A stretch of DNA of 49,606 nucleotides from an uncultured Vicinamibacteraceae bacterium. GTDB lineage: Bacteria; Acidobacteriota; Vicinamibacteria; Vicinamibacterales; UBA8438. The stretch lies in the NCBI GenBank assembly GCA_964634175.1, contig CAZWIL010000002.1, forward strand, positions 1 to 49,606. Direction: 5' to 3'. Below, piece after piece: positions 3,508 to 33,808 of this stretch (positions are counted from its first letter, which is position 1; every line of letters begins with the position of its first letter). Below the pieces are notes generated by a model. That model was given only the letters and a program-made list of their open reading frames with translations, had not been told where the DNA came from and made no database searches. The translations under genes and the position numbers were made by a program.

Positions 3508-3561
3508 CGCCCATCGTGTGCGTTGACGCCAGCGAGCAGAACCGTCCACGGCTGAAGCTTG

Positions 3562-3570
3562 TGGTAGGAT
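3562..3570 (+). promoter_or_regulatory. Candidate extended -10 (TGgTAGGAT) immediately upstream of the cytochrome c gene
   Basis: The TGnTAnnnT pattern ends 7 nt before the second in-frame ATG (3578). This would give a leaderless or near-leaderless transcript starting at MNRVFVIK. Confidence 0.3.
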
Positions 3571-4384
3571 GCCCGCCATGAATCGAGTGTTCGTAATAAA
3601 GACGTTGAGCAGTCTCTTGGGTTTGACGTTGACGATAGTCGTTGTGACGCAACAATCGCCACTACGCGCTGAGCAAGAACACGCCGGGTCATATGCTCAA
3701 GCAGACATTCAAGTCGGTCTGCGTCTCTACAGTGCCACCTGTACCACCTGCCACGGCCCGAATGGTGACCTCGTGCCAAGCATCGACCTGCGCACGGGCG
3801 AGTTCGAACGCGCACCCTCGGACCCCCAATTAATGGAACTCATCAAGAACGGTATTCCTGGCACTGCGATGCCACCAGGACAATACAGCGACGCCGAATT
3901 AACGGGCCTTGTGGCCTATCTTCGCACCATGGGAGACCTTGATCTCAATGACGCCGCGCGTGGTGACGTGGCGCGAGGTCAAGCACTCTACAACGGCAAG
4001 GGTGATTGCGCGAGTTGTCACCGGATTGGCCAGAGTGGATCACGGCTCGGACCGGATTTAAGTGACGTTGGCGCCAATCGAACTGCAGCCCTTTTGGAAA
4101 ACGCCTTGATTGACCCGACAGGTTCCATGTTTCCGATCAATCGCCCTGTCCGCGTGGTCACCGAAGCCGGCGCATTGTATGAAGGACGTCGGGTCAACGA
4201 AGACACCTACACCGTACAATTGATCGACCAGAATGAACGACTACGCTCTTTAGAGAAATCCTCCATCCGTGAATTTACGGTGATGGACGAATCACCTATG
4301 CCCGCCTACGGAGTCCTGTTTAATTCACAGGAACTATCTGACGTCGTGGCGTACCTGTTGTCGTTACGAGGACTGGAGAACTAG
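3569..4384 (+). CDS. Di-haem c-type cytochrome (second half resembles the PVC-type haem-binding domain), copy 1
   Basis: Signal peptide. Two CxxCH motifs (CTTCHG and CASCHR). The C-terminal module GDCASCHRIGQSGSRLGPDLSDVG...SPMPAY...ELSDVVAYLLSL matches the Pirellula/Verrucomicrobium-type haem-binding domain pattern. The start may be ATG 3578 instead of 3569. The stop lies 4 nt before the PQQ dehydrogenase start. Confidence 0.85.
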   Translation: MPAMNRVFVIKTLSSLLGLTLTIVVVTQQSPLRAEQEHAGSYAQADIQVGLRLYSATCTTCHGPNGDLVPSIDLRTGEFERAPSDPQLMELIKNGIPGTAMPPGQYSDAELTGLVAYLRTMGDLDLNDAARGDVARGQALYNGKGDCASCHRIGQSGSRLGPDLSDVGANRTAALLENALIDPTGSMFPINRPVRVVTEAGALYEGRRVNEDTYTVQLIDQNERLRSLEKSSIREFTVMDESPMPAYGVLFNSQELSDVVAYLLSLRGLEN

Positions 4385-4388
4385 AGGA

Positions 4389-6044
4389 ATGACGCGCCAT
4401 ATCGCACTTGTCACGATCACGGCCCTCCTAGCAGCGCCGGCGCTAGTCGGCGCCCAGGTCACGTACGAACGAATCCTCAATGCGGCAGACGAGCCGGAAA
4501 ACTGGTTGACTTACTCCGGCAGCTACGACAGCCAGCGGCACACCGGACTGGACCAGATTACTGCCGACAATGTGACTGACCTTGAATTGAAATGGGTCCA
4601 TCAAGCGGATTCACTCCAAGCCTTCGAAACAAGTCCTTTGGTTGTAGACGGCATCATGTACCTAACGGAAGCACCCAATACGGTGGTGGCACTCGACGCG
4701 AAGCTTGGGCGGGTGTTTTGGGTCTACGAGTACACGCCGTCGAACGAATCGCGGCCCTGCTGCGGTGCCGTAAATCGCGGGCTCGGAATCTTGGGCGACA
4801 CCCTGTTCATGGCGACCCTCGACGCAAACCTGATCGCGATCGACATCTGGTCCGGTAAACCGATTTGGATGAAAGATGTAGCTGATCCGGAATTGGGATA
4901 TGCGATGACATTGGCCCCGCTTGTCCTAAAAGACAAGGTTGTCGTCGGCGTTGCCGGTGGCGAATACGGCATTCGTGGCTTCATTGCTGCCTTCGATGCC
5001 GACACAGGTGACGAGAGTTGGCGTTTCTACACAATTCCGGGACCAGGCGAACCCGGCCATGAAACGTGGGAAGGCGGAGGGGATGCCTGGGAGCATGGTG
5101 GTGCGCCAGTGTGGCTAACCGGATCCTATGACCCCGAACTCAACCTGACGTATTGGGGCATCGGCAATCCTGGACCTGACTGGAACCCCGAACAACGTCC
5201 CGGTGACAACCTCTACTCTGACTGTGTCGTTGCCCTAGATGCGGACACTGGCGAACTGAAGTGGTATTTCCAGTTTACCCCCAATGACGACTACGACTTC
5301 GATGCCGTGCAAATTCCGGTGTTGGTCGACTACACCTCACCAAACGGTCAGACACTCAAACTGATGCTCTGGGGCAATCGAAACGGCTTCTTTTATGTTC
5401 TCGATCGAGAGGGTGGGCGGTTCGTTTCAGGGAGCCCATACGTCGACGTCAACTGGGCTGAAGGCCTGGATGACAGTGGCCGACCGGTCGAAACACCACA
5501 GCCAGCAGGTTCTCCGACATTTCCTGGGATCTTCGGTGGTACGAATTGGTACTCACCGTCGTATAGCCCCAGTACCGGGTTGTTCTACCTATCCGCCTGG
5601 GAGGCATACGGCGCCATTATGGAGCCGGCTGAAGCCGAGTACCAGCCCGGGCGGATTTTCATGGGTGGCCGCACGCGCCCAACCGGAGTCGCTGGTGCCC
5701 CTCGCCTGCCCGGTCTCGGGCGTGGCCACGTCAACAACTGGACGGCGGAGGCTGGTCGGGGCGCGGTCAAAGCTATCGACCCGACTACTGGCGAAGAAAT
5801 GTGGAAATTCGAGATGACCGACGTCACCACCAGCGGTATCCTGACAACGGCTTCGGATCTCCTGTTTACCGGCGGACGCGAAGGCTACTTTCATGCTCTT
5901 GACGCAACCAATGGTGAACTGCTCTGGAAAACAACGCTGGGCGGCATGATAGCGAATGGTCCAATCGCATATGGAGTCGACGGCAACCAATTCGTGGCCG
6001 TCGCGGCTGGAAATGGCTTGTTCGTATTCGGCCTACGTGAATAG
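4389..6044 (+). CDS. PQQ-dependent alcohol dehydrogenase, methanol/ethanol family, copy 1
   Basis: 551 aa with a signal peptide. Vicinal Cys pair in SRPCCGAVNRGL (TGC TGC 4758..4763), as in the MxaF/XoxF/ExaA ring disulfide. Repeated propeller motifs (GGEYGIRGFIAA, WGIGNPGPDWN, DADTGELKW). Active-site stretch NDDYDFDAVQ. Confidence 0.9.
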   Translation: MTRHIALVTITALLAAPALVGAQVTYERILNAADEPENWLTYSGSYDSQRHTGLDQITADNVTDLELKWVHQADSLQAFETSPLVVDGIMYLTEAPNTVVALDAKLGRVFWVYEYTPSNESRPCCGAVNRGLGILGDTLFMATLDANLIAIDIWSGKPIWMKDVADPELGYAMTLAPLVLKDKVVVGVAGGEYGIRGFIAAFDADTGDESWRFYTIPGPGEPGHETWEGGGDAWEHGGAPVWLTGSYDPELNLTYWGIGNPGPDWNPEQRPGDNLYSDCVVALDADTGELKWYFQFTPNDDYDFDAVQIPVLVDYTSPNGQTLKLMLWGNRNGFFYVLDREGGRFVSGSPYVDVNWAEGLDDSGRPVETPQPAGSPTFPGIFGGTNWYSPSYSPSTGLFYLSAWEAYGAIMEPAEAEYQPGRIFMGGRTRPTGVAGAPRLPGLGRGHVNNWTAEAGRGAVKAIDPTTGEEMWKFEMTDVTTSGILTTASDLLFTGGREGYFHALDATNGELLWKTTLGGMIANGPIAYGVDGNQFVAVAAGNGLFVFGLRE

Positions 6045-9232: not shown

Positions 9233-9270
9233 TGTAACCGGACTGTCACATTCCAGGCGTAATCTATATT
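9233..9270 (+). promoter_or_regulatory. Putative Pho box plus -10 for the PhoX-family gene
   Basis: TGTAACC-ggac-TGTCACA (9233..9250): two 7-bp repeats in 11-bp register, close to the E. coli CTGTCAT-type box. After 14 nt comes TATATT (9265..9270). AGGAGA at 9292..9297, ATG at 9307. Confidence 0.55.
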
Positions 9271-9306: not shown

Positions 9307-10842
9307 ATGTCTGATTTCAAACTGTCCGCAAGATCATTCAATCGACGACAGTTTCTGCGAGGCAGTGCAGCGACCGCAGCATCGACTCTCGCGAGTCCCT
9401 TCGGATTTTTGAGCACACAGTTACTCGCAAATCAAACGTTGTGTGGAACACGTGGACCGAGTCCGTATGGCCCCTTGGTTCCTACTCAAGACCAGGCGAC
9501 GGGCCTCTATCTCATCATGTTACCCGCCGGATTCACATACACAACACTCAGCTGGGCCGGCGATACGTTGGACGATGGCAACCCCGTTCCAACCGGCCAC
9601 GACGGAATGGCTGTGGTCGACATGCGAGGACAAGGGAGCACTGCCGAGTACCTGCTTATCCGCAACCAAGAAGTCTTCGGCCTGGGGCAACCAATCGCCT
9701 CAGGATACAACTACGACAATCAGGGCCCCGGTGGTACTACCGTGCTTCGCATACAAAACGGCAGGTTGCTGGAACACCTCGTGAGTCTCTCAGGAACTAG
9801 CGGGAACTGCGCCGGCGGTCCAACGCCGTGGGGCACGTGGCTCACATGCGAAGAAAGAATAATCGTTGGAGATGAACCTCACGGATACGTCTTTGAATCA
9901 ACACTCTCACGAGTCACAACGCCGACCCCACTTCGGCGAATGGGTCGGTTCAAGCACGAGGCTGTCGCGGTTGACCCGAAGACCGGAGGCGTCTACCTCA
10001 CGGAAGATAATTCGAGCAACAATACGGCCCCCGCGTCACGCAACCGCATGCGTGGAAATTCCGGATTCTATTACTTCGACCCAGATGACAAACTGGGAGG
10101 GCTGGGTTCTCTCAATAACGGCGGGACCCTGTATATGCTCCAAGCTCTTCTGCCAAGCACTGACACCGTCGTCGAAGACCTACGAAATCCCGAATGTCTA
10201 TCGGAATATGACGTTAGGTGGGTCGAGATTACGGAACCAGACGCAGACTCGACAGACATTCTGTCCGGCCCGTATATCGAAGGTCGCACGGGAGGAGCCA
10301 CTCGGTTTCAACGATTGGAAGGATGCTGGTGGGACTCGCGGGAAGACCGGGTCGTCTTTGTTGACACCGAAGCGGGACCGGTCTCCGCGCAACCAGATCG
10401 TAACGACCGCGCCGAAGGTGCCGTCTGGTCCTATGACCCGAGGAGTGCATCCCTAACTAACTTGTTTGTATCACGGGGTGCGGAAGCACTATCCGCCTAC
10501 GGCTCTGACAACCCCGACAACGTAGCAGTCAGTCCGCAGGGGGGAATCATCTTGTGCGAAGATGGCGGACAAGACGATGGGAACGGACTGGCTCTCCTAG
10601 GACTCCTGCCCAATGGGCAGACGTTCGAATTTGCTCGGAACATTGTGGAGATAGACAATGGCGACCAGGAAGCACTTTCAACCGCCGGGCACAATCCTGA
10701 TGCCATCGAAACAGGAAATTACAGTGGCCGCGAATGGGCGGGAGCCACGTTTAGCCCAGACGGGCGGTGGCTATTCGTTAACATCCAGAGACCCGGAATC
10801 ACGTTCTGCATAACCGGCCCATGGAGTACGGGGCCTTTTTAG
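9307..10842 (+). CDS. PhoX-family (DUF839) phosphatase-like protein, Tat-exported
   Basis: Twin-arginine signal SFNRRQFLRGSAATAAS. DUF839/PhoX-like beta-propeller motifs (GHDGMAV, CAGGPTPWGTWLTCEE, PDNVAVSPQGGIILCEDG, EWAGATFSPDGRWLFVNIQ). Confidence 0.75.
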   Translation: MSDFKLSARSFNRRQFLRGSAATAASTLASPFGFLSTQLLANQTLCGTRGPSPYGPLVPTQDQATGLYLIMLPAGFTYTTLSWAGDTLDDGNPVPTGHDGMAVVDMRGQGSTAEYLLIRNQEVFGLGQPIASGYNYDNQGPGGTTVLRIQNGRLLEHLVSLSGTSGNCAGGPTPWGTWLTCEERIIVGDEPHGYVFESTLSRVTTPTPLRRMGRFKHEAVAVDPKTGGVYLTEDNSSNNTAPASRNRMRGNSGFYYFDPDDKLGGLGSLNNGGTLYMLQALLPSTDTVVEDLRNPECLSEYDVRWVEITEPDADSTDILSGPYIEGRTGGATRFQRLEGCWWDSREDRVVFVDTEAGPVSAQPDRNDRAEGAVWSYDPRSASLTNLFVSRGAEALSAYGSDNPDNVAVSPQGGIILCEDGGQDDGNGLALLGLLPNGQTFEFARNIVEIDNGDQEALSTAGHNPDAIETGNYSGREWAGATFSPDGRWLFVNIQRPGITFCITGPWSTGPF

Positions 10843-10888
10843 GATAGCGCGGGAGAATCGTCACCTTTGACACACCGAGAGTGCCGAC

Positions 10889-11200
10889 TTAGCTTCGGAT
10901 ACTAGTTTCGGAATCAAGAGCGACGCCCTGGACTACGTCGCTGTCGTTCTCCGTCCCACACACTGCTTGCCCCAAGACGTCCTCAGACATGAAACGGCTT
11001 TCATCATCGGAAGGTCTCCCGCATCGCCAGACGCGGGTCGGTAGCAGATCAATAAGCCACGCGCGGCCACCAGTATGATGTGCCGTATCGTCACAATCTG
11101 GAGACTTTCGACTCACGATTCGCGACACTGTCAATCCGGTTGACGGGTCACGAATAACGGAGGCCGTGCACCCACACCACAATTTTAGTGTATTGCCCAT
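10889..11200 (-). CDS. Hypothetical small Cys-rich protein (doubtful CDS)
   Basis: 103-aa ORF with an ATG start, and the only ORF of 60 aa or more in the gap 10843..11712. The AAGGGG sits directly against the ATG, so the spacing is poor. No recognisable motif. Cys residues at WCGC, PDCDD, WRCG and AVCG. Confidence 0.3.
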   Translation of the reverse strand: MGNTLKLWCGCTASVIRDPSTGLTVSRIVSRKSPDCDDTAHHTGGRAWLIDLLPTRVWRCGRPSDDESRFMSEDVLGQAVCGTENDSDVVQGVALDSETSIRS

Positions 11201-11286
11201 CCCCTTAAGCTATCAGGCAACTGTGTTCCCCACATCACGAGCGTGTTACATCTACGTAAACTTGTCGCCTGGAAAATTTACGAAGT

Positions 11287-11332
11287 CTTAACAGAGGTGT
11301 AACGCAAACGTAACCCTCGTTCTTCATACTTT
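11287..11332 (+). promoter_or_regulatory. Putative triple Pho box plus -10, pointing toward the monooxygenase cluster
   Basis: CTTAACA-gagg-TGTAACG-caaa-CGTAACC (11287..11315): three 7-bp repeats in exact 11-bp register. After 11 nt comes TACTTT (11327..11332). Same repeat class as upstream of pstS, the porin and the PhoX-like gene. Lies ~400 nt upstream of ATG 11713. Confidence 0.5.
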
Positions 11333-11712
11333 AGGTGTTCAAGTTGGCACGGCCACATTCTGGACCAACCGACTAGAACACTCGATAGATGGGCACGTTT
11401 TGCTCTGTCAACGAGCGTATGACTCGTGCTCAAGCAACCTCCTAAGCGTGCCTGTCTATCTCGTTCTCCTCCTTCATCCCCCTAGAATCACTTCGTTTGA
11501 ATCAAGACGTCCAAACTACCATTCAGCATCTGGGCCCGACTCATTGTCGCGACCGTTAACGACGCAGAAAGACGGGGGTCAACGGTCGCCATCGCCCCTT
11601 GTAAACCAGGCGAAAAACACCCTTGGTAAGCTTGACAAGACAGTGGTAAACTGCCAGAAATCCTAAGTTAGATCGATTTGAGATTCGGCTAAAATCCGAA
11701 AAGGAAAAGCCC

Positions 11713-13158
11713 ATGGAACGACCGTTGAAATCTCTAACTCTGACAGCGCTTGCGGTCCTCGTCTGTCTATTAGCCCCAGCCCTAGCGGTTGTTGCTGTAG
11801 CGGGCCAACCCTCAGACGAGGTGACGTTCACAAAGGACGTACTGCCGATTCTGCAGCGGTCGTGTCAGAAGTGTCACCGGCCCGGCACCGCAGCTCCGAT
11901 GTCACTGCTGACCTACGACGACGCACGTCCATGGGCCCGCGGCATCAAAGACCAGGTTACTGCGCGACGGATGCCACCTTGGCACCTCGACCGGTCGATT
12001 GGTCAATTTCAAGCCGACCCATCACTGAGCGATGACGAGATCAATACCATTGCTACCTGGGTCGACCGTGGTGCGCCACGTGGTAACCCCGCTGATGCCC
12101 CGCCGCCGCTAGAACTTGACAACCTGCAACAGTGGACGTACGGCGACCCCGATCTGGTTGTCTCCATGAAAGAAGGCTTCCTGATTCCGGCCGAAGGCCC
12201 CGACTTCTATCCGTCGGAAATCGTCGATCCAGGCCTGACTGAGGACCGCTATGTCAAATGGGTTCAGATCATCCCGTCGGCTTGGTGCTGTGTGCATCAC
12301 TCACACGTCTATGTCAGTGTGCCGGAAACAGCCGAGGACCTCGAAGAGTTTAAGCTGGGCATGGGATCAAACACGGACGAAATTGATCTGATCGAATACG
12401 CGATGGGAAGCAGCGGCCAGTTCTACCCGGATGGTACGGGCAGGAAACTCCCGGCTGGTGGGCAGTTCAGATTTGCGCCGCACTACCACCCCTGGGGCGA
12501 AGAAACACGTGATTTCCAAGAGGTCGGAATCAAGTTTTATCCAAAAGATGAGGTGCCGGAGTTAATCGTGACGGCTCATCGCTTACGCACCGGTATTGGT
12601 AATGACTGGGTACTCAACCGTGAAGAAGTCGAAGATCGACTGCTGCGAGCTGGATACGACCTTGACTTACACGGAACAGAAATGCCCGCAGACGCGTGGG
12701 TAGATGACAACACCCTGAACGGCATTGCTCGTATGAGCATCCCGCCCCATACCGTGGCCAAGCATGAACGGTTTTGGCCACTTCCTGATCCGGCGTTGTT
12801 GTTGAGTTTCCAGCCGCACATGCACTTCCGCGGTGACCGGATGTTGCTTGAAGCGATTCACCTGGATGGTCGCCGCGAGATTCTAATCGATGTCAATAAT
12901 TACGAGCAGACGTGGCAACTCGTGTACCCCTACAAAGAACCGCATCTCTTCCCAAAGGGCACGGTACTGCATAGTGTGACGTGGCACGACAACACCTCGA
13001 ACAACCGCCACAATGTCGACCCGTCAGCATGGATCGGGTGGGGTGGTCGAACCATGGACGAAATGGGTCACGGGTGGAGCGATATCGCCTTCATGACTGA
13101 AGAACAATACCAAGAGCGTGTGGAGAAACGCGAGCAGGACCGCGCTCAGGACCAGTAA
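11713..13158 (+). CDS. Secreted cytochrome c (Planctomycete-type CxxCH module) fused to a PHM/DBH-like type II copper monooxygenase domain, paralogue A
   Basis: Signal peptide. FTKDVLPILQRSCQKCHRPGTAAPMSLL (CxxCH at 11863..11877). Then CCVHHSH (H195, H196), APHYHPWG (H257, H259), QPHMHFRG (H369, H371) and GGRTMDEMG (M448, M451), which mirror the CuH (H,H,H) and CuM (H,H,M) ligand sets of peptidylglycine alpha-hydroxylating monooxygenase. SD AAGGA lies 7 nt upstream. Confidence 0.7.
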   Translation: MERPLKSLTLTALAVLVCLLAPALAVVAVAGQPSDEVTFTKDVLPILQRSCQKCHRPGTAAPMSLLTYDDARPWARGIKDQVTARRMPPWHLDRSIGQFQADPSLSDDEINTIATWVDRGAPRGNPADAPPPLELDNLQQWTYGDPDLVVSMKEGFLIPAEGPDFYPSEIVDPGLTEDRYVKWVQIIPSAWCCVHHSHVYVSVPETAEDLEEFKLGMGSNTDEIDLIEYAMGSSGQFYPDGTGRKLPAGGQFRFAPHYHPWGEETRDFQEVGIKFYPKDEVPELIVTAHRLRTGIGNDWVLNREEVEDRLLRAGYDLDLHGTEMPADAWVDDNTLNGIARMSIPPHTVAKHERFWPLPDPALLLSFQPHMHFRGDRMLLEAIHLDGRREILIDVNNYEQTWQLVYPYKEPHLFPKGTVLHSVTWHDNTSNNRHNVDPSAWIGWGGRTMDEMGHGWSDIAFMTEEQYQERVEKREQDRAQDQ

Positions 13159-13198: not shown

Positions 13199-14623
13199 AT
13201 GGCTGCACGGTGCAAAATTCTGATCATACTGTCGGCGGTTTTTGTGTTGGGGAGCGGGTTGCCAAGTGTCGTCTTGGCCAACAGCGACGACCCAACGTTC
13301 ACAAAGGACGTGCTGCCAATTTTGCAGCGCTCGTGTCAGAAATGCCATCGACCCGGCACGGCAGCACCCATGTCCCTCCTGACCTATCAGGAAACTCGTC
13401 CCTGGGCACGTTCAATTAAGGACCGGGTCAGCCAACGGCAAATGCCTCCGTGGCACCTTGATCGCAGTATCGGCACTTACAAAGACGACCCGTCTCTAAC
13501 CGACCAAGACATCGACACTATCGTCTCCTGGGTAGATAACGGCGCGCCGCAAGGGAACCCGGAAGACGCACCAGCCCCACTTGAGTTGGCCGCCTTTGAC
13601 GAATGGGTTCGAGGTGAACCTGACCTGATCGTGAGCATGAAAAACGGTTTTACGATTCCAGCTGAAGGCCCTGACCTCTTTCCTTCTGAAATCGTAGACT
13701 CTGGCCTAACCGAAGATCGGTATATGCAATGGGTTCAACTCATTACCACCGCTCACTGCTGTGTCCACCACGAGCACGTGTATGCATTTGTTGGTTCAGA
13801 TAGTCCAGACGGCAACGAAGCTGACAATGTGGAAACCACACACGTCACCGAGTACGTGATGGGGAATAACGGTGATGACTTCCCCGACGGAGCAGGCAAA
13901 CTACTTCGCGCCGGATCGAAGTTTCGTTTTGCTCCTCACTACCACCCGTGGGGCGAAGAAGTTCACGACATTTCAGAAGTGGGAATCAAATTTTATCCGA
14001 GAGAAGTGACACCTGAACTCGAAGTCACATCCCATCGAATTCGAACGGGTGTCGGTAACGACTGGACCCTTAACCGTGAAAAAGTCGAAGACTATTTACT
14101 TCGGCAAGGGTATGACCTTGACCTTGCTGCCGATGCTCCGGTCGAGGAGTTTCTGACTGAGGCCGACGTGAACAGTCTCGCGCAGCTCAGTATTCCACCC
14201 AACACGGTCGCCCGATCTGAGCGTTTTCTTCGATTGGATACGCCGGCGATGGTAATCAACTTCCAGCCGCACATGCATTTCAGAGGCCAGCGGATGCTAC
14301 TTGAAGCGATTCATATCGATGGGCGGCGTGAAATCCTGACGGATGTCCCTCGGTACGAACAGGTCTGGCAATTAACCTACACATACGACAAGCCTCACAT
14401 CTTCCCAGCAGGAACGGTCCTGCATTCCGTGGCTTGGCATGACAACACATCGGCCAATCGACACAACCCAGACCCGTCAGCGTGGATTGGCTGGGGCGGG
14501 CGAACCATGGACGACATGGGAAACGCGTGGACCGATATCGCCTTCATGACGGAGGAACAGTACGAGAAACTCCGAGACCAACGTGACCGCGAAGCGCGAG
14601 CCGAAGCCGATGATGGTCAGTAG
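13199..14623 (+). CDS. Secreted cytochrome c fused to a PHM/DBH-like copper monooxygenase domain, paralogue B
   Basis: Collinear with paralogue A, and most aligned residues are identical by eye. TFTKDVLPILQRSCQKCHRPGTAAPMSLL, CCVHHEH, APHYHPWG, QPHMHFRG and GGRTMDDMG are all retained. Start taken at ATG 13199 (GGAGG at 13188..13192), not the track start 13118, which overlaps gene A. Confidence 0.7.
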   Translation: MAARCKILIILSAVFVLGSGLPSVVLANSDDPTFTKDVLPILQRSCQKCHRPGTAAPMSLLTYQETRPWARSIKDRVSQRQMPPWHLDRSIGTYKDDPSLTDQDIDTIVSWVDNGAPQGNPEDAPAPLELAAFDEWVRGEPDLIVSMKNGFTIPAEGPDLFPSEIVDSGLTEDRYMQWVQLITTAHCCVHHEHVYAFVGSDSPDGNEADNVETTHVTEYVMGNNGDDFPDGAGKLLRAGSKFRFAPHYHPWGEEVHDISEVGIKFYPREVTPELEVTSHRIRTGVGNDWTLNREKVEDYLLRQGYDLDLAADAPVEEFLTEADVNSLAQLSIPPNTVARSERFLRLDTPAMVINFQPHMHFRGQRMLLEAIHIDGRREILTDVPRYEQVWQLTYTYDKPHIFPAGTVLHSVAWHDNTSANRHNPDPSAWIGWGGRTMDDMGNAWTDIAFMTEEQYEKLRDQRDREARAEADDGQ

Positions 14624-15440
14624 AAGAAATACAGTGGTATTTCGTTTTGGACTGAGAAGACTTGTCGCAATCAGTATTGGACTGTGCTTGGCCGTCAGTC
14701 AATACGCGACCCTGCCGTCTCATGCGCAGACCCAGTTTTTTGACGCAGGGCAGGAACGACAGGCGATCTATCCAGCATACGAAGGTTTTACGCGTAATGA
14801 AGATGGGTCATGGACCCTCTCATTCGCATATTTCAGCCACAACTCCACAACTGTCACTATTGCACCAGGCCCCGGGAACTTCTTTGAACCTGGGCAAGGC
14901 GATATCGGTCAACCGACAACATTTCATCCTGGCCATCATCGTTGGGAGTGCATTGTTGTAGTGGACGCCGACTTCGACGGAAACTTGCGTTGGACCCTCT
15001 CCCACGAAGACATCACCACCTCCACGAGCGAATCGATGCTCCAGTACAGTTGGGAATTCAGCGAAAGTGATAAGCGAAACGCGCTGCGGTCGATTGACAA
15101 TCCAACGGCGGTTCCGCGTGGCGTCTGCATCAATCGTCCACCTATTGTTCGAGTGCTCGGATATGGCGGAAGCCGAGGTCCACACGAATTACACATCAAG
15201 GTGGGTGAAGGCCTAAAGCTCTTTGGTAGTGTTCGTGACGAAGGTTTACCGAGGAATGGAACCCTCACATCCTCTTGGACCAAAATGAGCGGTCCTGGAC
15301 AAGTCTCGTTCGATAACGGCACCGAACCTAGGACACTGGCATTCTTTACGGCAGCTGGTGAATATGAGCTCCAACTCACCGGAAACGATTCAGAACTTCA
15401 GAACACCACGACGGTCAAGGTTGTCGTCGCGGCGTCCTAA
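14610..15440 (+). CDS. Secreted hypothetical protein: His-rich N-domain (HPGHHRWEC) plus a C-terminal PKD/Ig-like domain
   Basis: ATGATG at 14610 overlaps the stop of paralogue B (14621..14623) by 14 nt. Signal peptide RRLVAISIGLCLAVSQYATLPSHA-Q. The C-terminal LKLFGSVRDEGLPRNGTLTSSWTKMSGPGQVSFDN...YELQLTGND follows the PKD-like repeat pattern. The start could also be GTG 14583. Confidence 0.6.
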   Translation: MMVSRRNTVVFRFGLRRLVAISIGLCLAVSQYATLPSHAQTQFFDAGQERQAIYPAYEGFTRNEDGSWTLSFAYFSHNSTTVTIAPGPGNFFEPGQGDIGQPTTFHPGHHRWECIVVVDADFDGNLRWTLSHEDITTSTSESMLQYSWEFSESDKRNALRSIDNPTAVPRGVCINRPPIVRVLGYGGSRGPHELHIKVGEGLKLFGSVRDEGLPRNGTLTSSWTKMSGPGQVSFDNGTEPRTLAFFTAAGEYELQLTGNDSELQNTTTVKVVVAAS

Positions 15441-19095: not shown

Positions 19096-19738
19096 TTCGT
19101 TGTGCCAGTTGGCGAACGGCCGGGGGAATATCCTGCCGACGTATATCACCTGCCGCAGCATAAACGTCCAACCGGTCAAGCTCAGCGGCCAGTCGCACTG
19201 CGAACTCGTCTTGGTCTCTGTCAGCGGCCTCAACTAGACCACTATTCGGAGGACAGGCTCGTACTTCAATATTCTCGAACTGCTGCGCAAAAGTCGCCAC
19301 ACATCGTCGCATGGCAAAGCCCTTGGCCACCAGGATCGCCGTCTGGGGCATTTGATGGCTGCGCTGCAGTACTTCAATCCCCAATCGAACATTTTCGAGT
19401 GTATTCGCAGCGACCGTCTCAGTCAGAATCGCTGACTCAGGAACACCTTTCGATACTAAATAATCTTGAAATACTAAAGCCTCAGGCTTTTCGAATACCC
19501 CTCGGGTCATCCGTCCATAGCTCCCAGTGACAAGCACCCGTGAGGCATAACGGTCGTGATACAGCGACGCAGCTTGGGCCGCCACAGCCAAATCCTGGCT
19601 CCCAAACACAAAGATGACATCGGATGGCCCCGGTGTATCGGCGAGAACCAAATAGTCCCACAATGGTTGAACTAGGCGCCAGAGGTCGTCATTAGACGAC
19701 AGGCTGGCCTCAGTGCGCGGTCTATCGTTCAAGGGCAA
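19073..19738 (-). CDS. DUF218 (YdcF/ElyC-like) domain protein
   Basis: VIFVFGSQD...VLVTGSYG...TVAANTLENV...ILVAKGFAMRRC fits the DUF218 pattern. The only ATG starts (19825, 19774) overlap the upstream PQQ dehydrogenase gene by 104 and 53 nt. TTG codons at 19738 and 19732 would give 17- and 11-nt overlaps. The start is therefore uncertain. The 3' end overlaps the convergent SSS gene by 23 nt. Confidence 0.65.
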   Translation of the reverse strand: MPLNDRPRTEASLSSNDDLWRLVQPLWDYLVLADTPGPSDVIFVFGSQDLAVAAQAASLYHDRYASRVLVTGSYGRMTRGVFEKPEALVFQDYLVSKGVPESAILTETVAANTLENVRLGIEVLQRSHQMPQTAILVAKGFAMRRCVATFAQQFENIEVRACPPNSGLVEAADRDQDEFAVRLAAELDRLDVYAAAGDIRRQDIPPAVRQLAQRIRTLVAS

Positions 19739-21356
19739 ATACGAAGAGTCCGTTCCCAGCAGCCACGGCCACATACTGTCTGCCGTCGACAGCATAGGTA
19801 ATTGGACCATTCGCAATCTGGCCACCTAAACTTCTCTTCCAGAGCAACGCACCCGACCCGGCATCGAGTGCTTGAAAGTGCCCTTCCCGTCCACCGCTAA
19901 ACAAAAGATTTGAGCTGGTGGTCAGGATCCCACTTGTCGTGACGTCGGTCATCTCAAATCGCCAACGCTCTTCACCATTACTGGGATCGATCGCGATCAC
20001 CGCACCACGCCCGGCCGCTTCCGTCCAATTATTCACCGGACCACGGCCAAGCGGCGGCATTTCACCGAGGTCCACGGTCCCCCCGCCAAAGTTCTGACCC
20101 GGCTGATACACCGATTCGGCGGGTGTGAAGACCGTGCCATAGCCCTCCCACGTCGGAACATAAAAGAGTCGTGTGCTCGGGCTGTAGGACGGCGAATACC
20201 AGTTTGTCCCACCCGAGACACCGGGATAAGTAACGGCCCCAGGCGGCTGCGGTGTCTGGACCGGACGTCCGTTGTCGTCAAGTCCGTCAGCCCAGTTAAC
20301 GTCAACAAATGGTTGACCATTGATAAATCGACCGGTCTCTCGGTTGAGCACGTAGAAAAATCCGTTCCGATTAGCCCACAGCATGAGCTTGAGCGTACTT
20401 CCATCATTTGCCGGATAGTCGACAAGGACCGGTATCTGTACCGAATCGTAGTCGTATGGATCGTTAGGCGTGAACTGGAAATGCCACTTGAGCTCACCAG
20501 AGTCCGCATCCAGCGCCACCACAGAATCGGAATAAAGATTGTCACCCAACCGCTGAGCCGGGTTGAAATCTGGACCAGGGTTTCCGGTGCCCCAGTAGAT
20601 AAGGTTGAGGTCACTGTCATACGACCCGGTCAGCCAAGTCGCACTGCCGCCGTGCTCCCAAGCGTCGCTGTCGCTTGGCCACGTGTCATGACCTGGCTCT
20701 CCCGGTCCTGGAATGGTATGAAAACGCCATGCTTCGTCGCCGCTTTCAGCGTAATACGCAGCAATGAATCCCCGGATACCATATTCGCCACCAGCCACTC
20801 CAACGACGATTTTATCCTTCACTACAAGCGGCGCCAACGTCATGGCATACCCAATAGCCGGGTCCGCGACCAACGTCTTCCAAATGGGTCGTCCCGTGAC
20901 CGAATCGATCGCAATCAGCTGCGCATCGATGGTCGCCATAAAAAGCGTCTCACCAAGAATCGCCAAACCGCGATTAACGCGACCGCAGCAGGGTCGAGAC
21001 TCCAGTGACGGAACGTGTTCATAGATCCAGAAGACCCGTCCCGTCCTCGCATCCAGAGCAACCACGGTATTTGGTGCTTCGGTGAGATACATGATTCCAT
21101 CGACAACGAGCGGAGTCGTCTCGAACACCTGAAGTGACTGTGCCTGAAAGACCCACTCCAGCTCTAGCTCACTGACGTTCTCTGGGGTGACCTGTTCAAG
21201 TCGGCTGTGTCGTTCGCCAGAATTGGTTCCGGAATACGTCAACCAATTCTGTGGTTCTTGATCGGCCGCAAGTAGCCGTTCGAAGGTCACCTGCGCGGTA
21301 ACGTCAGAAAGGCATGCAACGGCGAGACTAAGTGCGACAAGCGTAGTTCGAACCAT
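19722..21356 (-). CDS. PQQ-dependent alcohol dehydrogenase, methanol/ethanol family, copy 2
   Basis: 544 aa and collinear with copy 1. Roughly three quarters of aligned residues are identical by eye, while third codon positions differ widely. SRPCCGRVNRGL vicinal Cys pair. Active-site stretch NDPYDYDSVQ. Confidence 0.9.
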   Translation of the reverse strand: MVRTTLVALSLAVACLSDVTAQVTFERLLAADQEPQNWLTYSGTNSGERHSRLEQVTPENVSELELEWVFQAQSLQVFETTPLVVDGIMYLTEAPNTVVALDARTGRVFWIYEHVPSLESRPCCGRVNRGLAILGETLFMATIDAQLIAIDSVTGRPIWKTLVADPAIGYAMTLAPLVVKDKIVVGVAGGEYGIRGFIAAYYAESGDEAWRFHTIPGPGEPGHDTWPSDSDAWEHGGSATWLTGSYDSDLNLIYWGTGNPGPDFNPAQRLGDNLYSDSVVALDADSGELKWHFQFTPNDPYDYDSVQIPVLVDYPANDGSTLKLMLWANRNGFFYVLNRETGRFINGQPFVDVNWADGLDDNGRPVQTPQPPGAVTYPGVSGGTNWYSPSYSPSTRLFYVPTWEGYGTVFTPAESVYQPGQNFGGGTVDLGEMPPLGRGPVNNWTEAAGRGAVIAIDPSNGEERWRFEMTDVTTSGILTTSSNLLFSGGREGHFQALDAGSGALLWKRSLGGQIANGPITYAVDGRQYVAVAAGNGLFVFALER

Positions 21357-21360
21357 GACG

Positions 21361-22155
21361 TTACATCCCTTTCAGCATCAACAAGTACGCGAGCACGTCT
21401 GCCCGTTCCTCTGCGGTAAGTGTTTCTTCGTAGGATGGCATCGGTGACGTGGTCAAGATGGTAAATTCACGAAGATCAGCTTTATCCAGTGACACTAGGC
21501 GCTCGTTGGCGTCGACAAGTTGGATGCTGTAGGTATCTTCGTTTAACCGACGCCCCTGGATAATGGTTCCGTCCCGCGTAACGAGTCGGACTGGTCGGTT
21601 GGTCGGTCGCATCGCCGCTGTCGGGTCAAGTAGTACCTGTTCGAGTGACCCGGCACTCCGGGTAGTTCCGATGGCACTCAGATCGGGTGCCGCTCTGGGG
21701 CCAACACCATTAACACGATGGCAGCTGGAGCACTCACCTTTACCTCTGAACAATTCTTCGCCGCGACCGGCATCACCGAGCGCCACACTGTCAAGGTCGT
21801 AGGTGGCCATGTTACGAAGATAGGCGACTAGTCCAGCTAATTCTGATTGTGTAAAGCTAGCCGGCGGCATCGCCGTTCCTGGAATGCCGGTGGTAATAAG
21901 TCTCGTGATCTCGGAATCCGTCGCCACGCGGCGAAACTGGCCGTCGCGCAAATTCACACCGACGACCATGTCTCCAGCAATGCCATGGCACCGGGTACAG
22001 TTCGCTTCATACAGTTGAGCTCCGTGCTCCACATCAGCTCGCAAATACTGTCCCACGTGGTCTTGTGCATCGACCTGGCCGCACACCCCAACCAGTAATA
22101 GCAGTAGCGACACACTCACCCTACGAGCGAGTCGATAGAAACGAGAGTTCTTCAT
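21361..22155 (-). CDS. Di-haem c-type cytochrome, copy 2
   Basis: 264 aa with a signal peptide. CTRCHG and CSSCHR. Same PVC-type C-terminal module (SPMPSY...ADVLAYLLMLKG). GGAGAG SD lies upstream. Same gene order as copy 1 (cytochrome then dehydrogenase, 4-nt gap). Confidence 0.85.
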   Translation of the reverse strand: MKNSRFYRLARRVSVSLLLLLVGVCGQVDAQDHVGQYLRADVEHGAQLYEANCTRCHGIAGDMVVGVNLRDGQFRRVATDSEITRLITTGIPGTAMPPASFTQSELAGLVAYLRNMATYDLDSVALGDAGRGEELFRGKGECSSCHRVNGVGPRAAPDLSAIGTTRSAGSLEQVLLDPTAAMRPTNRPVRLVTRDGTIIQGRRLNEDTYSIQLVDANERLVSLDKADLREFTILTTSPMPSYEETLTAEERADVLAYLLMLKGM

Positions 22156-25966: not shown

Positions 25967-27361
25967 TCACATCGAAACATCGTGGATGGATACATGTTCC
26001 GTTGGCAGAGTTACGGTGAAAACCGCTCCGCCGCCAACGCGATTAGCCGCAGTCACCGTGCCACCCTGCAGGCCCACAAGATGCTTGACAATGGCCAAAC
26101 CTAGTCCCGTGCCTCCCGGATTTCGAACTCGAGACGGCTCCACACGATAGAAACGCTCAAACACCCGACTCAGATCAGCATCCGGAATACCCGGACCACG
26201 ATCACTGACCGTCAAAACCAAACTGCCATGCAATGACTCGGCGCCTAATGCGATACTCGAATCGTTCGGTGCATAGTGTGACGCATTCTCAAGTAGATTC
26301 TTGAGCACATCATGCACTTTGGAGGCATCAATCATTACAGACAGTTTGTTCGGTACCATGTTGACCTCTATTACGTGGCCATTAGCCTTTAACAGTGGTG
26401 CGATCTCCGTCTGAATATCGATAACAACAGACGCCAATGAACACAATTCAAGATTGACTGCCTCCTGATGAGCATCTAGCCGAACCAAGCGGATCAAATC
26501 GTTAACCAAACGCTCCATCCGACTGGCCTGACGGCTGATAATGTCAAGAAATCGAGAGTCTCTGGAAGGATCATCTGATTCCAATAAAGCCACCACTCCT
26601 GCCCGGATTGCCGTCAGGGGCGTTCGTAATTCATGTGACACATTCGCAACAAAATCCTCGCGGACCTGCTCAGTTTCTCGATACCTTGTAATGTCACGTA
26701 AAACAACGGCTACACCCGGTGAATCATCCGCATCGGCATCAAGCGACACTACATGGGCGAAAATCACCTTTTGAGAGCTCGCAATTAGATCGACCTCAAA
26801 TTGAACCGCCGTTCCATCTTCGAGTACACGGGTAATTTCTTTCGACATCTGCGGATGGCGAATGAATTCTAAATAGTGGCGGCCGATTAACGAGTCGCTC
26901 GCCGTGAGTATCTGTCCAACGGCCGCGTTCGCTATCTGAACATGACCCCGTGTATCTATTACAAGAACACCTTCTTCCATACCAGACAGGATCGCCTCGT
27001 GGAACACGCGTAGACGGGAGAGCCCAGCTAACTGGCCCACAAGATCTTGCGCTACACCATCCCAAACCTTCGCCATGGTGCCAACTTCATCATCGCCATA
27101 ACCGCCAGCGAGGGGCACAATATTTCCAGTAGTAAATTGTTCGGCGCGCGAAATTATCGTCTGAACTCGGCGGTTCATCGCACTCGAAATCATCCAGGCT
27201 GCAACAAAGGAAGATCCCAGAGCAGCCAAGAGCCCCGTCGCGGTCGCCACCCAGATTGATGCCCCTCGCTCGTTAACGGTCACAGCAATCAAAAGACTGA
27301 ATGCTGCGACTCCAAACGCCGAAAAACACAGACGCGTGCGAAGTCTCATTAAGAACCTCAC
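25967..27361 (-). CDS. phoR: Phosphate regulon sensor histidine kinase
   Basis: Two N-terminal TM segments, HAMP/PAS regions, H-box FVANVSHELRTPLTAI, and HATPase N/G boxes (NLLENASHY, DRGPGIP, GGTGLGLAIVKH). Sits directly downstream of phoB and phoU. Confidence 0.85.
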   Translation of the reverse strand: MRFLMRLRTRLCFSAFGVAAFSLLIAVTVNERGASIWVATATGLLAALGSSFVAAWMISSAMNRRVQTIISRAEQFTTGNIVPLAGGYGDDEVGTMAKVWDGVAQDLVGQLAGLSRLRVFHEAILSGMEEGVLVIDTRGHVQIANAAVGQILTASDSLIGRHYLEFIRHPQMSKEITRVLEDGTAVQFEVDLIASSQKVIFAHVVSLDADADDSPGVAVVLRDITRYRETEQVREDFVANVSHELRTPLTAIRAGVVALLESDDPSRDSRFLDIISRQASRMERLVNDLIRLVRLDAHQEAVNLELCSLASVVIDIQTEIAPLLKANGHVIEVNMVPNKLSVMIDASKVHDVLKNLLENASHYAPNDSSIALGAESLHGSLVLTVSDRGPGIPDADLSRVFERFYRVEPSRVRNPGGTGLGLAIVKHLVGLQGGTVTAANRVGGGAVFTVTLPTEHVSIHDVSM

Positions 27362-27367
27362 CCGTGC

Positions 27368-28057
27368 TCACTCGGAAGCAACGAGTTTGTATCCGAATTG
27401 TTTAACAGTAGTTATAGCTTGTTGGAGACTAGGAATCTTCTCACGGAGACGACGAACATGAACATCCACGGTCCGCGTCCCGCCTGTGTATTGGTAACCC
27501 CAGACGTCGGTCAGCAATAAATCTCGAGAAATTACTCGACCGCTGTGCTTTATCAAATAGATGAGCAGCAAAAACTCCTTTGCAGCCAAATTAATAACTT
27601 GATCATCTACCGTCACATTATGTGCGTGCTCGTCAATGACTATGTTTCGATATCGAAGTAAACCATCCTTGGTCTTGACCTGGGTTCGCTTAGTGCGACG
27701 TAAAACCGCACCGACCCGAGCCACTAACTCCTTCGGGCTGAATGGCTTGGTTACGTAGTCGTCAGCCCCTACCTCTAACCCGACGACTCGATCAGTCTCC
27801 TCACCCTTAGCCGTCAGTATAATAATCGGGAGACCCGCCATCCCGGGGTCAGACCTGACCGCGCGACAGATCTCAAGTCCGTTCAAGCCTGGCAACATTA
27901 AATCCAATAAAAGTAAATCGGGAAGCTTCTCACGCAAGCTGGCGAGGACCTGTTCACCTGAGTAAAGAGTATCCGTCCCATACCCAGCATTCTGGAGGTG
28001 ATGAGAAACTAGGTCTGCGATGTCCTCATCGTCCTCCACAACGAGAATCCATGTCAT
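27368..28057 (-). CDS. phoB: Phosphate regulon response regulator (OmpR/PhoB family)
   Basis: MTWILVVEDDEDIADL...LLLLDLMLPGLNG...IIILTAKGEE receiver domain plus a winged-helix C-terminus (RVISRDLLLTDVWGY...RTVDVHVRRLREKI). Start taken at ATG 28057, 4 nt after the phoU stop. The track start 28165 lies inside phoU. Confidence 0.88.
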   Translation of the reverse strand: MTWILVVEDDEDIADLVSHHLQNAGYGTDTLYSGEQVLASLREKLPDLLLLDLMLPGLNGLEICRAVRSDPGMAGLPIIILTAKGEETDRVVGLEVGADDYVTKPFSPKELVARVGAVLRRTKRTQVKTKDGLLRYRNIVIDEHAHNVTVDDQVINLAAKEFLLLIYLIKHSGRVISRDLLLTDVWGYQYTGGTRTVDVHVRRLREKIPSLQQAITTVKQFGYKLVASE

Positions 28058-28061
28058 GGAG

Positions 28062-28751
28062 TCAATCAGCGCCACCCTCCTGAGCGTGATGTCGGACATC
28101 CTGTGCGGATTCGATGAAGATGACCTCCTCGGCAATGTTTGTCGCGTGATCGCCAATACGTTCAAGATGCCGTGAAATCAAGATGAGGTCCAGTGAGGGC
28201 TCGGTAATGCCCGTATCTTTAAGCATCAGATTCAGCAACTCTCGAAAAACCTTGTCTTTTAATTCGTCAACCTCGTCGTCTCGCTTAATTACGTCCTTCG
28301 CGAGCAGCGTATCGTGCTTGATATATGCATCAAGCGAATCACGAAGCATGCCTTGAGCGAGTTCGTCCATTCTCGGAATGTCTATCAAGGGCTTAACGGA
28401 TGGATGCGCCAGATACCCCAGGGCTGCCTCTGCGACATTAACCGCAAAGTCTCCTATCCGCTCCAAGTCGCTGTTAATCTTCACAGCCGACACAATCACT
28501 CGAAGATCTGTCGCCATCGGCTGGTGTAGCGCTAGTAATCGAAAGCAGCGCTTATCAATCTCCACATGGAGTCGATTAATCGAACCATCTCCCGTCACGA
28601 CCTTCTGACACAGGTCATGGTCTCGCTTGAGGAGGGCCACGCCGGCTGAGCGAACTTGCTCCTCAACCTCACCGCCCATTACTAATAAGCGAGCCTTAAG
28701 CTCTTCGAGCTCTTCTTGAAAATGCGGAACAACCGGTTCTATCGGCTCCAC
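28062..28751 (-). CDS. phoU: Phosphate signalling complex protein PhoU
   Basis: Two PhoU repeats (DLRVIVSAVKINSDLERIGDFAVNVAE and LILISRHLERIGDHATNIAEEVIF). GTG start. Confidence 0.9.
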   Translation of the reverse strand: MEPIEPVVPHFQEELEELKARLLVMGGEVEEQVRSAGVALLKRDHDLCQKVVTGDGSINRLHVEIDKRCFRLLALHQPMATDLRVIVSAVKINSDLERIGDFAVNVAEAALGYLAHPSVKPLIDIPRMDELAQGMLRDSLDAYIKHDTLLAKDVIKRDDEVDELKDKVFRELLNLMLKDTGITEPSLDLILISRHLERIGDHATNIAEEVIFIESAQDVRHHAQEGGAD

Positions 28752-28769
28752 GACACCTCTCTGGCCAGT

Positions 28770-29630
28770 TTATCCAAATCGGCCGGTAACATAGTCTTCG
28801 GTGATCTTTTCGGACGGAGCAGTAAAAATCTTGTCAGTTTTATCGTATTCCACGAGACGTCCGAGCCAGAAAACCGCCGTAGCATCGGACACCCGCGCAG
28901 CCTGTTGCATATTGTGCGTAACAATCAGAATCGTATAGTCATTCTTCAGCTGGTAGATCAGTTCTTCAATACGCTGGGTAGCGATGGGATCGAGCGCGGA
29001 CGCAGGCTCATCCATCAATAAGATTTCCGGCTGAATTGCCAAAGCTCTGGCGATACACAACCGCTGCTGCTGGCCTCCTGACAATGAGAGAGCTGATTCC
29101 TTCAAACGATCCTTAACTTCGTCCCATAAAGCTGCCAACTTCAGACTTTCTTCCACTCGGTCCGCCAGTTCAGACCGAGTGCTACCCATGCCGTTAATTC
29201 GAAGACCATATGCGATGTTTTGGAAAATCGACTTCGGAAATGGATTGGACTTCTGAAACACCATGCCGACTCGACGGCGCAGTTCGACGACATCTGTCGC
29301 TTTGTCATAGATGTCCTGTCCATTGATCAAGATACGGCCTTGAACACGAACACCTGGAATAATGTCGTTCATCCGATTCAACGTGCGCAAGAACGTACTC
29401 TTACCGCACCCCGATGGCCCTATGAACGCCGTGACTCGGTTTGAAGGAATAGCAACTGAAATGTCCTTCAGCGCTTGAGTCTCGCCATAAAAAAAACACA
29501 GGTCTTGAACATCTATTTTAGCGGCCGTCGAATCTGTCTTCAGGCCGGAGCTGTTGTCGTGTTTTTTTGCCGACTGAGCCGCCACGCCGGACAAGGATGG
29601 AATTGAATGTGAGGTCATCGATGGACACAC
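28770..29630 (-). CDS. pstB: Phosphate ABC transporter ATP-binding protein
   Basis: [59 protein letters not shown] and [12 protein letters not shown]. The start is either GTG 29630 or ATG 29618. Confidence 0.93.
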
Positions 29631-31378: not shown

Positions 31379-31392
31379 TGAATTCTATAAAA

Positions 31393-32370: not shown

Positions 32371-32397
32371 AATCCTATTCCTCGTCCATTTCACCGC

Positions 32398-32426
32398 TGT
32401 TACCTCTATGTTAAATTCGTGTTAAC
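32398..32426 (-). promoter_or_regulatory. Putative triple Pho box upstream of pstS
   Basis: On the minus strand: GTTAACA-cgaa-TTTAACA-taga-GGTAACA. Three 7-bp repeats in exact 11-bp register, followed after 4 nt by TGAAAT. Confidence 0.6.
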
Positions 32427-32478
32427 GGATTCTTCCGCGACTCTCACCCTGGTAGATTTTGATGATCCGCCCACTCGT

Positions 32479-33747: not shown

Positions 33748-33790
33748 GTCCGTAGATTACTCCCACTGAATTTCAGAGGCATTTCTGAAA

Positions 33791-33808
33791 AGTTAAATCT
33801 TTGTTACA
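33791..33808 (-). promoter_or_regulatory. Putative Pho box upstream of the porin gene
   Basis: On the minus strand: TGTAACA-aaga-TTTAACT in 11-bp register, then ...TGAAAT as a possible -10, GGGAG as SD, and ATG 33747. Confidence 0.45.

Follow-up and report, generated by a model that had tools for sequence, protein, structure and literature searches.

What does a tandem array of TAAC-type repeats control when it lies between an alkaline phosphatase gene (phoX) and a cluster of copper monooxygenase genes (mox)? The question is raised by an 870-nucleotide (nt) gap (10843-11712) in contig CAZWIL010000002.1, of which we analysed a stretch of 49,606 nt (hereafter the window; 53.5% GC). The source of the DNA is an uncultured marine member of the Vicinamibacterales (Acidobacteriota); two Vicinamibacteraceae metagenome-assembled genomes (L001 and L002; other related loci are numbered in the same way) encode proteins with 96-98% identity to the product of 11713-13158. 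In the original prediction, made from the letters of the window, the repeats were read as a PhoB-type Pho box that would place the monooxygenase genes, or an unannotated RNA in between, under phosphate-starvation control. The analysis described here indicates that the array at 11276-11315 is very probably a PhoB-type promoter. It also favours, with less assurance, a two-way Pho region which would serve a leaderless small open reading frame (ORF) on the left and a structured non-coding RNA on the right, and not the mox genes directly.

Four phased repeats and a -10 element at fixed distance

The segment 11287-11332 reads CTTAACA-gagg-TGTAACG-caaa-CGTAACC-ctcgttcttca-TACTTT, so that the three 7-base-pair (bp) repeats in 11-bp phase, followed after 11 nt by TACTTT, were found with exactly the letters and coordinates originally given. 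A further unit, ATTTACG (11276-11282, plus strand), absent from that first list, lies in the same phase and resembles the first unit, of the type GTTTACA, in relatives' pstS promoters. The rightward array comprises four units on the plus strand, ATTTACG and the earlier-noted CTTAACA, TGTAACG and CGTAACC (11287-11315), which start at 11276, 11287, 11298 and 11309 and maintain an exact 11-bp phase (7-bp repeats, 4-bp spacers).

The hexamer TACTTT (11327-11332) had been pointed out after the repeats. The overlapping hexamer CATACT (11325-11330, plus strand) is the more probable -10, because the last T of TACTTT is not invariant, whereas CATACT is invariant in five lineages and starts 9 nt after unit 4. 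CATACT was also picked as -10 by a consensus scan of L082. The same 9-nt gap between the last unit and the -10 is common to the rightward array and to the promoters of pstS, the porin gene, phoX and the small ORF. Transcription should start near G11337, an invariant position, and run rightward; no start codon is present at the predicted start, and a GTG at 11335 was rejected as a leaderless start because of its wrong spacing. Scanning of 10800-11800 for sigma-70 promoters and intrinsic terminators found nothing. The Pho promoter would be missed by such a scan because a PhoB-type promoter lacks a -35 element.

A promoter layout shared with pstS, the porin gene and phoX

PhoB and PhoR had been reported in the window, and we found both of them encoded together with PhoU and PstSCAB. 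The genes phoR, phoB, phoU, pstB, pstA, pstC, pstS and a porin gene occupy 25967-33747 on the minus strand (PhoR, PhoB, PhoU and PstBACS span 25967-32394), with phoB/phoR adjoining phoU-pstBACS. The best NCBIfam match of the response regulator (27368-28057) is PhoB. A cognate PhoB/PhoR system, on which a PhoB-dependent promoter would rely, is thus present in the window itself.

The repeat class noted at pstS (32426-32398, minus strand), the porin gene (33808-33791, minus strand) and phoX (9233-9250, plus strand) is present at all three places and directed towards the gene. The pstS promoter (32364-32426, minus strand) consists of GTTAACA/TTTAACA/GGTAACA/TGAAATG, 9 nt, TAGGAT, 7 nt and the ATG at 32364. 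In the porin promoter (33745-33808, minus strand) TGTAACA/TTTAACT/AGAAATG/TGAAATT are followed by 9 nt, TAATCT, 6 nt and the ATG at 33747. The phoX promoter (9233-9265, plus strand) has two units (TGTAACC-ggac-TGTCACA), 9 nt and the -10 TAATCT; phoX is not leaderless and has a Shine-Dalgarno leader. In L002 the phoX Pho box (~3530-3545; window 9240-9246) has lost 7 nt, comprising the greater part of the spacer and the beginning of the second repeat, and phoX of L002 may have lost PhoB control.

The same layout was found outside the window. We fetched 80 metagenomic loci encoding PstS relatives and used the ~20 closest (58-76% identity, GC 0.53-0.69). Upstream of pstS they have four heptamers in 11-bp phase, 9 nt and a -10 of the form TAnnGT or TAnnnT. 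A typical array is GTTTACA - ATTAACA - CGTAACA - CGAAATT, in which the distal units are strong and the proximal ones weak. In 17 of 20 relatives' pstS promoters the ATG lies 6-7 nt after the -10, a distance that implies a leaderless mRNA. The pstS and porin genes of the window also look leaderless, like those 17 of 20 related Vicinamibacteria-like contigs (among L084-L117), and leaderless Pho genes seem to be a trait of the lineage. The PhoB-type reading of the 11276-11315 array is therefore strengthened by its repeat class, phase, orientation and 9-nt gap, which are those of pstS, the porin gene and phoX in the window and of the ~20 relatives' promoters. The array combines more than the minimum of two phased repeats with a match to the pst sites of its own genome and lineage, and its repeats stand where a -35 element would otherwise be, with a constant gap to the -10.

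The repeats exceed chance expectation

The motif TAAC-N7-TAAC occurs five times on the two strands of the window against 0.48 expected from dinucleotide shuffles, and all five copies lie in the 11276-11315 array or at pstS or the porin gene. Triple TAAC was found twice, in the rightward array and at pstS, against an expectation of 0.00. A first matrix, for which only the units of pstS, the porin gene and phoX were used, was tested on 300 dinucleotide-shuffled windows. The trimer scored 19.0 with this matrix, a value reached in 3 of the 300 shuffles. Dimers were not significant: the dimer score of the rightward array was reached in 108 of 300 shuffles, and dimer hits at 45614 (plus strand) and at L060:8780 (minus strand) were dismissed as chance-level matches inside coding regions.

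A second, independent matrix of 55 nt was derived from the 20 foreign pstS promoters, contained no window sequence, and was tested on 500 shuffles. With the full matrix (values for the units only in parentheses) pstS scored 41.5 (38.3), the porin gene 27.3 (28.0), the minus-strand site from 11261 described below 17.6 (9.5), and the best unrelated site 7.0 (9.8). The rightward array from 11276 scored 29.2 with the units only. None of the 500 shuffles reached this value (shuffle maximum 19.5), and in the units-only ranking of the 49.6-kb window the rightward array came second after pstS, level with the porin gene. The full-matrix score of the minus-strand site was not reached in any of the 500 shuffles either and was the third highest in the window.

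Conservation of the array in close relatives

Close relatives with the order phoX - small ORF - array - moxA are L002, L082/L083 and the short contigs L164-L170; the MoxA proteins of L002 and L082/L083 are 96% and 94% identical to that of the window, respectively. The loci L082, L083 and L167-L170 stem from Tara and sponge-associated samples. An alignment of five lineages revealed no change in TTTACG of unit 1, in the cores TAAC, TGTAA and CGTAA of units 2-4, or in TCATACTT in the -10 region, whereas the spacers differ. Four-fold degenerate sites in phoX and moxA, which are 66-76% identical between the window and L082, served as neutral reference for these comparisons.

A probable divergent Pho promoter and a putatively leaderless small ORF

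On the minus strand a second array, unmentioned in the original prediction, occupies 11222-11261. Its units are GTTTACG (11261-11255), TGTAACA (11250-11244), CGTGATG (11239-11233) and GAACACA (11228-11222), separated by the minus-strand spacers taga, cgct and tggg. The -10, TAGCTT (11207-11212, minus strand; TAAGTT in relatives), follows the last unit after 9 nt and precedes an ATG at 11200 by 6 nt. This is the leaderless layout of the porin gene (TAATCT, 6 nt, ATG) and of 17 of 20 relatives' pstS promoters. The leftward array is kept in L002, L082/L083, L165 and L167. The two arrays together delimit a bidirectional Pho control region of ~94 bp (11222-11315).

The ATG at 11200 opens an ORF of 103 amino acids (aa) on the minus strand (10889-11200), convergent with phoX. 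Eight homologous clusters share 62-93% identity, and all of them are 99-104 aa long. Third positions are over-represented among the changes in the 56 N-terminal codons (e.g. 8/4/19 by codon position), and synonymous changes are frequent there; the C-terminal half lacks this signature and its tail evolves fast. The conserved domain consists of the 56 N-terminal residues, with invariant C9, C11, C36, H41 and H42. Searches of Pfam and NCBIfam with the small ORF yielded no family match, and its AlphaFold model was unusable (mean predicted local distance difference test score, pLDDT, 45.7). From these features the small ORF is probably a real, clade-specific protein under Pho regulation. In L082/L083 it has a premature stop at codon 78, and phoX of L082 (1597-3132) was called as two ORFs (229 + 264 aa) but is intact in L083. 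These stops and the split phoX may reflect decay of the Pho genes in that lineage, or assembly errors.

A conserved non-coding block with predicted hairpins at the proposed start

Downstream of the rightward array a non-coding RNA was predicted at 11337-11460 (plus strand). It comprises stem-loop 1 (~11336-11380) and the long stem-loop 2 (11384-11460), which contains the 14-bp stem GAUAGAUGGGCACG / CGUGCCUGUCUAUC. The segment 11343-11381 is 93% identical between the window and L082, as compared with 66-76% at neutral sites, and is the best-conserved part of the 870-nt gap. Single-base, frame-breaking indels between lineages indicated that the block 11337-11460 is non-coding. RNAalifold predicted 47 pairs, nearly all of them invariant or wobble-compatible. 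A covariance model of the RNA, run on the mox and related loci, matched only the window, L002, L082/L083 and the small-ORF contigs. Searching 10800-11800 against Rfam (E <= 1) gave just two chance snoRNA-like matches and no family.

Other interpretations of this part of the gap were rejected. The ORF orf88 (11400-11666) is not a gene, as the L002 protein is 78% identical whereas the DNA is 91-94% identical, and frame-breaking indels occur elsewhere. An 18-aa ORF at 11389 is frameshifted in L082. The gap as a whole (10843-11712) does not behave as a repeat, insertion sequence or pseudogene: blastn across the collected loci matched the same clade only.

Beyond the structured block the tail 11464-11486 is rich in C and U (CUCGUUCUCCUCCUUCAUCCCCC), and its CCUCC motif resembles an anti-Shine-Dalgarno sequence; in relatives CCUCC lies slightly further downstream. 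If the RNA acts in trans, this tail could pair with ribosome-binding sites. The tail is embedded in a C-rich, G-poor tract (11450-11527, plus strand) with a C/G ratio of 3.1, above the 99th percentile of the 78-nt windows of the stretch, and this tract is a possible Rho-loading (rut-like) region. From ~11470 to ~11600 conservation between the window and L082 drops to 40-55%. The unannotated RNA, which the original prediction had offered as an alternative, fits these data better: a conserved, indel-tolerant and structured block stands at the predicted start. For a stand-alone small RNA (sRNA), the promoter and the non-coding nature are supported, while no intrinsic terminator was predicted that would define its 3′ end.

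The monooxygenase genes and their own promoter-like element

The cluster downstream of the gap starts with moxA (11713-13158, plus strand), which encodes an N-terminal CxxCH cytochrome c domain joined to a PHM-like copper monooxygenase. It is followed on the plus strand by its paralogue moxB (~13199-14623), likewise a cytochrome c / PHM-like fusion with a CxxCH motif, and by a gene for a PKD-domain protein (14583-15440; start uncertain). At the sequence level MoxA fell below the Pfam threshold (E = 0.054), and single-sequence and profile searches of the PDB gave nothing useful. The designation as PHM-like oxygenase was borne out at the level of the fold: Foldseek searches with the AlphaFold model of MoxA (pLDDT 73.8) returned PHM and DBH as top matches (E ~6e-12, probability 1.0). 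Invariant Mox residues are H195/H196, H257/H259, H369/H371 and M451, corresponding to the HH, H, HxH and M ligands, and judging from the model MoxA has the two-domain beta-sandwich fold with the ligands of CuH (His3) and CuM (His2Met).

The tandem paralogues moxA and moxB, ~63-67% identical to each other, occur in the window and in L001, L004, L082 and L083. Only one mox copy is present in L002 (6001-7458), the nearest relative for which upstream sequence is available; this points to an older duplication or to a loss that took place recently in L002.

The pair of Mox and PKD-domain proteins forms a conserved module in ~80 Vicinamibacterales genomes, where an SSF transporter and an esterase are usually encoded nearby. 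We compared 83 loci with orthologous genes (roughly 1 Mb). With the window-derived Pho matrix no site was found upstream of mox outside the phoX-bearing clade (~80 other loci), and over the mox loci the independent Pho matrix matched only in L002 and L082/L083, which carry phoX and the small ORF. A Pho box is thus not a general feature of the region upstream of orthologous mox operons. The synteny with phoX and the small ORF is limited to L002, L082, L083 and L164-L170. In L003, L004 and L081 phoX is absent from the position upstream of mox, and the gene directly before mox is a cupredoxin gene in L003 and a glycogen gene in L004 and L081. The matrix scan which had been suggested as a check of the original prediction, when run on the window and the relatives' loci, placed the repeats above chance but detected no Pho array at the other mox loci.

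A second conserved block starts at ~11600 and contains TTGACA and the extended -10-like element TGGTAAACT (11644-11652, plus strand), 61 nt before the moxA ATG. The element is conserved in the window, L002, L082, L165 and L170, and it is also present in L003/L004, which are without phoX, small ORF and array. This region would be a moxA-proximal promoter. TGGTAA occurs twice, 20 bp apart (11624-11629 and 11644-11649), on the two sides of TTGACA, with the second copy forming TGGTAAACT; the TGGTAA/TTGACA block (11620-11655) could be a promoter or a regulator site.

The genes around mox include two separate gene pairs for a dihaem cytochrome c and a pyrroloquinoline quinone (PQQ)-dependent dehydrogenase (3569-6044, plus strand; 19722-22155, minus strand), together with genes for a tannase/feruloyl esterase, a GDSL lipase, a metallo-beta-lactamase-fold protein, a cupredoxin, an esterase and an SSF transporter. 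Such periplasmic oxidative and hydrolytic functions make the neighbourhood of mox a catabolic one, not one of phosphorus metabolism. On the other side of the gap stands phoX (9307-10842, plus strand; Pfam PF05787, E = 3e-67), an alkaline phosphatase with a twin-arginine (TAT) signal.

DISCUSSION

The observations suggest the following mechanism. The PhoB protein encoded in the window would bind the four-unit array, which would replace a -35 element, with CATACT located 9 nt further on. Under phosphate limitation phosphorylated PhoB would recruit RNA polymerase, and transcription would start near G11337 in the rightward direction. The minus-strand arm, built by the same grammar, would produce a leaderless mRNA for the conserved 103-aa protein. 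The rightward product would be a structured RNA of ~125 nt. It would either stand alone, in which case Rho would probably end it within the C-rich tract, or form the 5′ portion of a long leader. Together phoX, the small ORF and the RNA would constitute a clade-specific Pho module placed between the cupredoxin gene and the mox cluster.

Several results weigh against this interpretation. The full 55-nt matrix gave the rightward array a score of only 12.8, which was reached in 3 of 500 shuffles; the low value is explained by the spacers and the -10, which differ from the pstS type. The response regulator scored 241 bits, below the NCBIfam PhoB equivalog cut-off of 296 bits. Over 11283-11322 the window and L082 are 68% identical, i.e. 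at the neutral level, two of the three TAAC cores read TAAT in L082, and the array scores much lower there. As the undisputed phoX Pho box varies equally, including the 7-nt deletion in L002, this divergence is no argument against function, yet it is a caveat. For the RNA, covariation is weak, with a single compensatory pair among sequences that are 92% identical, and in none of three loci (the window, L082 and L170) is it separated from moxA by a predicted intrinsic terminator.

The lack of a predicted terminator in these three loci is also what an alternative explanation would expect, according to which the array is the phosphate-starvation promoter of the mox operon, with a structured leader of 375 nt and expression of moxA, moxB and the PKD-domain gene under phosphorus limitation. 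The array is oriented as moxA, no other ORF with a coding signature lies between them, and each of the clade's five lineages preserves the order array - RNA - proximal promoter - moxA. We nevertheless consider this explanation unlikely. The ~80 other Mox-PKD loci of Vicinamibacterales have neither a Pho array nor a copy of the RNA, and relatives without the array also possess the proximal promoter element. Nor would the collapse of conservation at 11470-11600 be expected of a functional leader; an untranslated transcript would, moreover, have to pass the strongly C-rich, G-poor tract, and the neighbours are oxidative and hydrolytic catabolic genes, not phosphorus genes. The phosphate control of the copper monooxygenase that was originally envisaged therefore loses ground, as the Pho array accompanies mox only in the three closest relatives and mox keeps a conserved proximal promoter-like element. 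With that putative promoter in place, phosphate could act on mox only via read-through, and Pho control of the oxygenases by read-through over 375 nt appears doubtful, if conceivable.

Two further explanations concern the nature of the array itself. Regulators of the OmpR/PhoB family are alike in the tandem TGT-A-AC-like half-sites that they recognise, and the array might be bound by another OmpR-family regulator with a similar half-site that responds to another signal. The GTTTAC and GAAAC units do resemble OmpR half-sites as generally known, and the sub-threshold score of the response regulator points in the same direction. We regard this as very unlikely, since the same four-unit grammar is found at pstS of the window, at pstS of ~20 relatives and at the pst-adjacent porin gene, and occurs also upstream of phoX; the 11-bp period is maintained throughout, and the array belongs to a module with phoX. 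That the repeats are a chance cluster of TAAC heptamers or a decaying relic of a promoter would agree with the dimer score reached in 108 of 300 shuffles, with the coding-region examples at 45614 and L060:8780, with the neutral identity of the array to L082, and with the premature stop of the small ORF in L082/L083 and the split phoX of L082. This explanation is disfavoured and we give it hardly any weight: no shuffle in 500 reached the four-unit score, and the expectation for triple TAAC is 0.00; neither the repeat cores nor the -10 vary among five lineages, and purifying selection clearly acts on the block that follows directly downstream. A PhoB-type promoter remains our preferred reading of the array.

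The architecture has counterparts in well-studied Pho systems. The E. coli Pho box consists of 7-bp direct repeats with 4-bp spacers and an 11-bp period, and pstS has two boxes (four repeats). For E. coli PhoB, the distance from pho box to core promoter is known to be strictly constrained (PMC10294691). The array studied here is similar in its 11-bp period, in the replacement of the -35 at a short fixed distance from the -10, and in a core of the type TGT-A/C-A-C/T. It differs in that the core is (T/G)T(A/T)AC(A) instead of CTGTCAT and the gap to the -10 is 9 nt instead of ~10; several promoters of this lineage are leaderless, and its Pho sites are predicted ones. The PhoP boxes of B. subtilis are TT(A/T/C)ACA repeats with a period of ~11 bp, of which multiple copies are required (typically at least four), and some are located inside coding regions. 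Their TTAACA/TTTACA hexamer is near-identical to units found here and at relatives' pstS, although B. subtilis belongs to another phylum and its regulator to another clade, whereas the present genome is that of an acidobacterium with a PhoB/PhoR/PhoU set. In Streptomyces coelicolor PhoP binds arrays of 2 to 8 direct-repeat units of 11 nt, grouped into operators of class I-III, and binding is cooperative, spreading from strong core units to weak flanking ones (PMC2275107). The strong distal and weak proximal units observed here are reminiscent of that arrangement. The consensus in S. coelicolor, G(G/T)TCAYYYR(G/C)G, is different, and was supported by electrophoretic mobility shift assays and footprints, whereas the sites described here are predictions.

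A Pho-regulated sRNA has been described in Bacillus, where PhoS derives from the 3′ untranslated region of phoPR (PMC11522486); a PhoB site reported at E. coli esrL is disputed (PMC10294691). What is proposed for the rightward arm is similar to PhoS in that a regulator of phosphate starvation would drive a non-coding RNA. It differs from PhoS in that the predicted RNA has its own Pho-box promoter, belongs to no Rfam family and is confined to one clade. MoxA resembles PHM and DBH in fold and in the HH...H and HxH...M pattern of ligands, and is distinguished from them by its fusion to an N-terminal c-type cytochrome, its bacterial origin, its pairing with a PKD-domain protein and an insertion of ~40 residues between the halves that carry the copper sites. 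A literature search on bacterial cytochrome c / PHM fusions found no paper.

A bolder proposal, which we regard as speculative, would combine a clade-specific, PhoB-dependent regulatory RNA of ~125-190 nt (two hairpins and a CU-rich, anti-Shine-Dalgarno-like tail), the leaderless Cys/His mini-protein and phoX into a small mobile 'Pho module' of marine Vicinamibacterales. In its strongest version read-through or RNA control would couple phosphate starvation to mox.

Our literature search on Pho boxes of Acidobacteriota found no description of such sites. The array is an ordinary regulatory element in a phylum without an earlier description of it, and nothing categorically new. The idea of a phosphate-controlled PHM-like oxygenase is tempered by the results, for the adjacency is clade-specific and the oxygenase has its own putative promoter. 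What the locus provides is a usable promoter grammar for Vicinamibacteria: four units in 11-bp phase, 9 nt, TAnnnT and often a leaderless ATG 6-7 nt further on. This grammar allows prediction of the Pho regulon in uncultured marine and soil members of the phylum, and in the organism studied here it adds two unannotated candidate members to that regulon, the 103-aa protein and the structured RNA.

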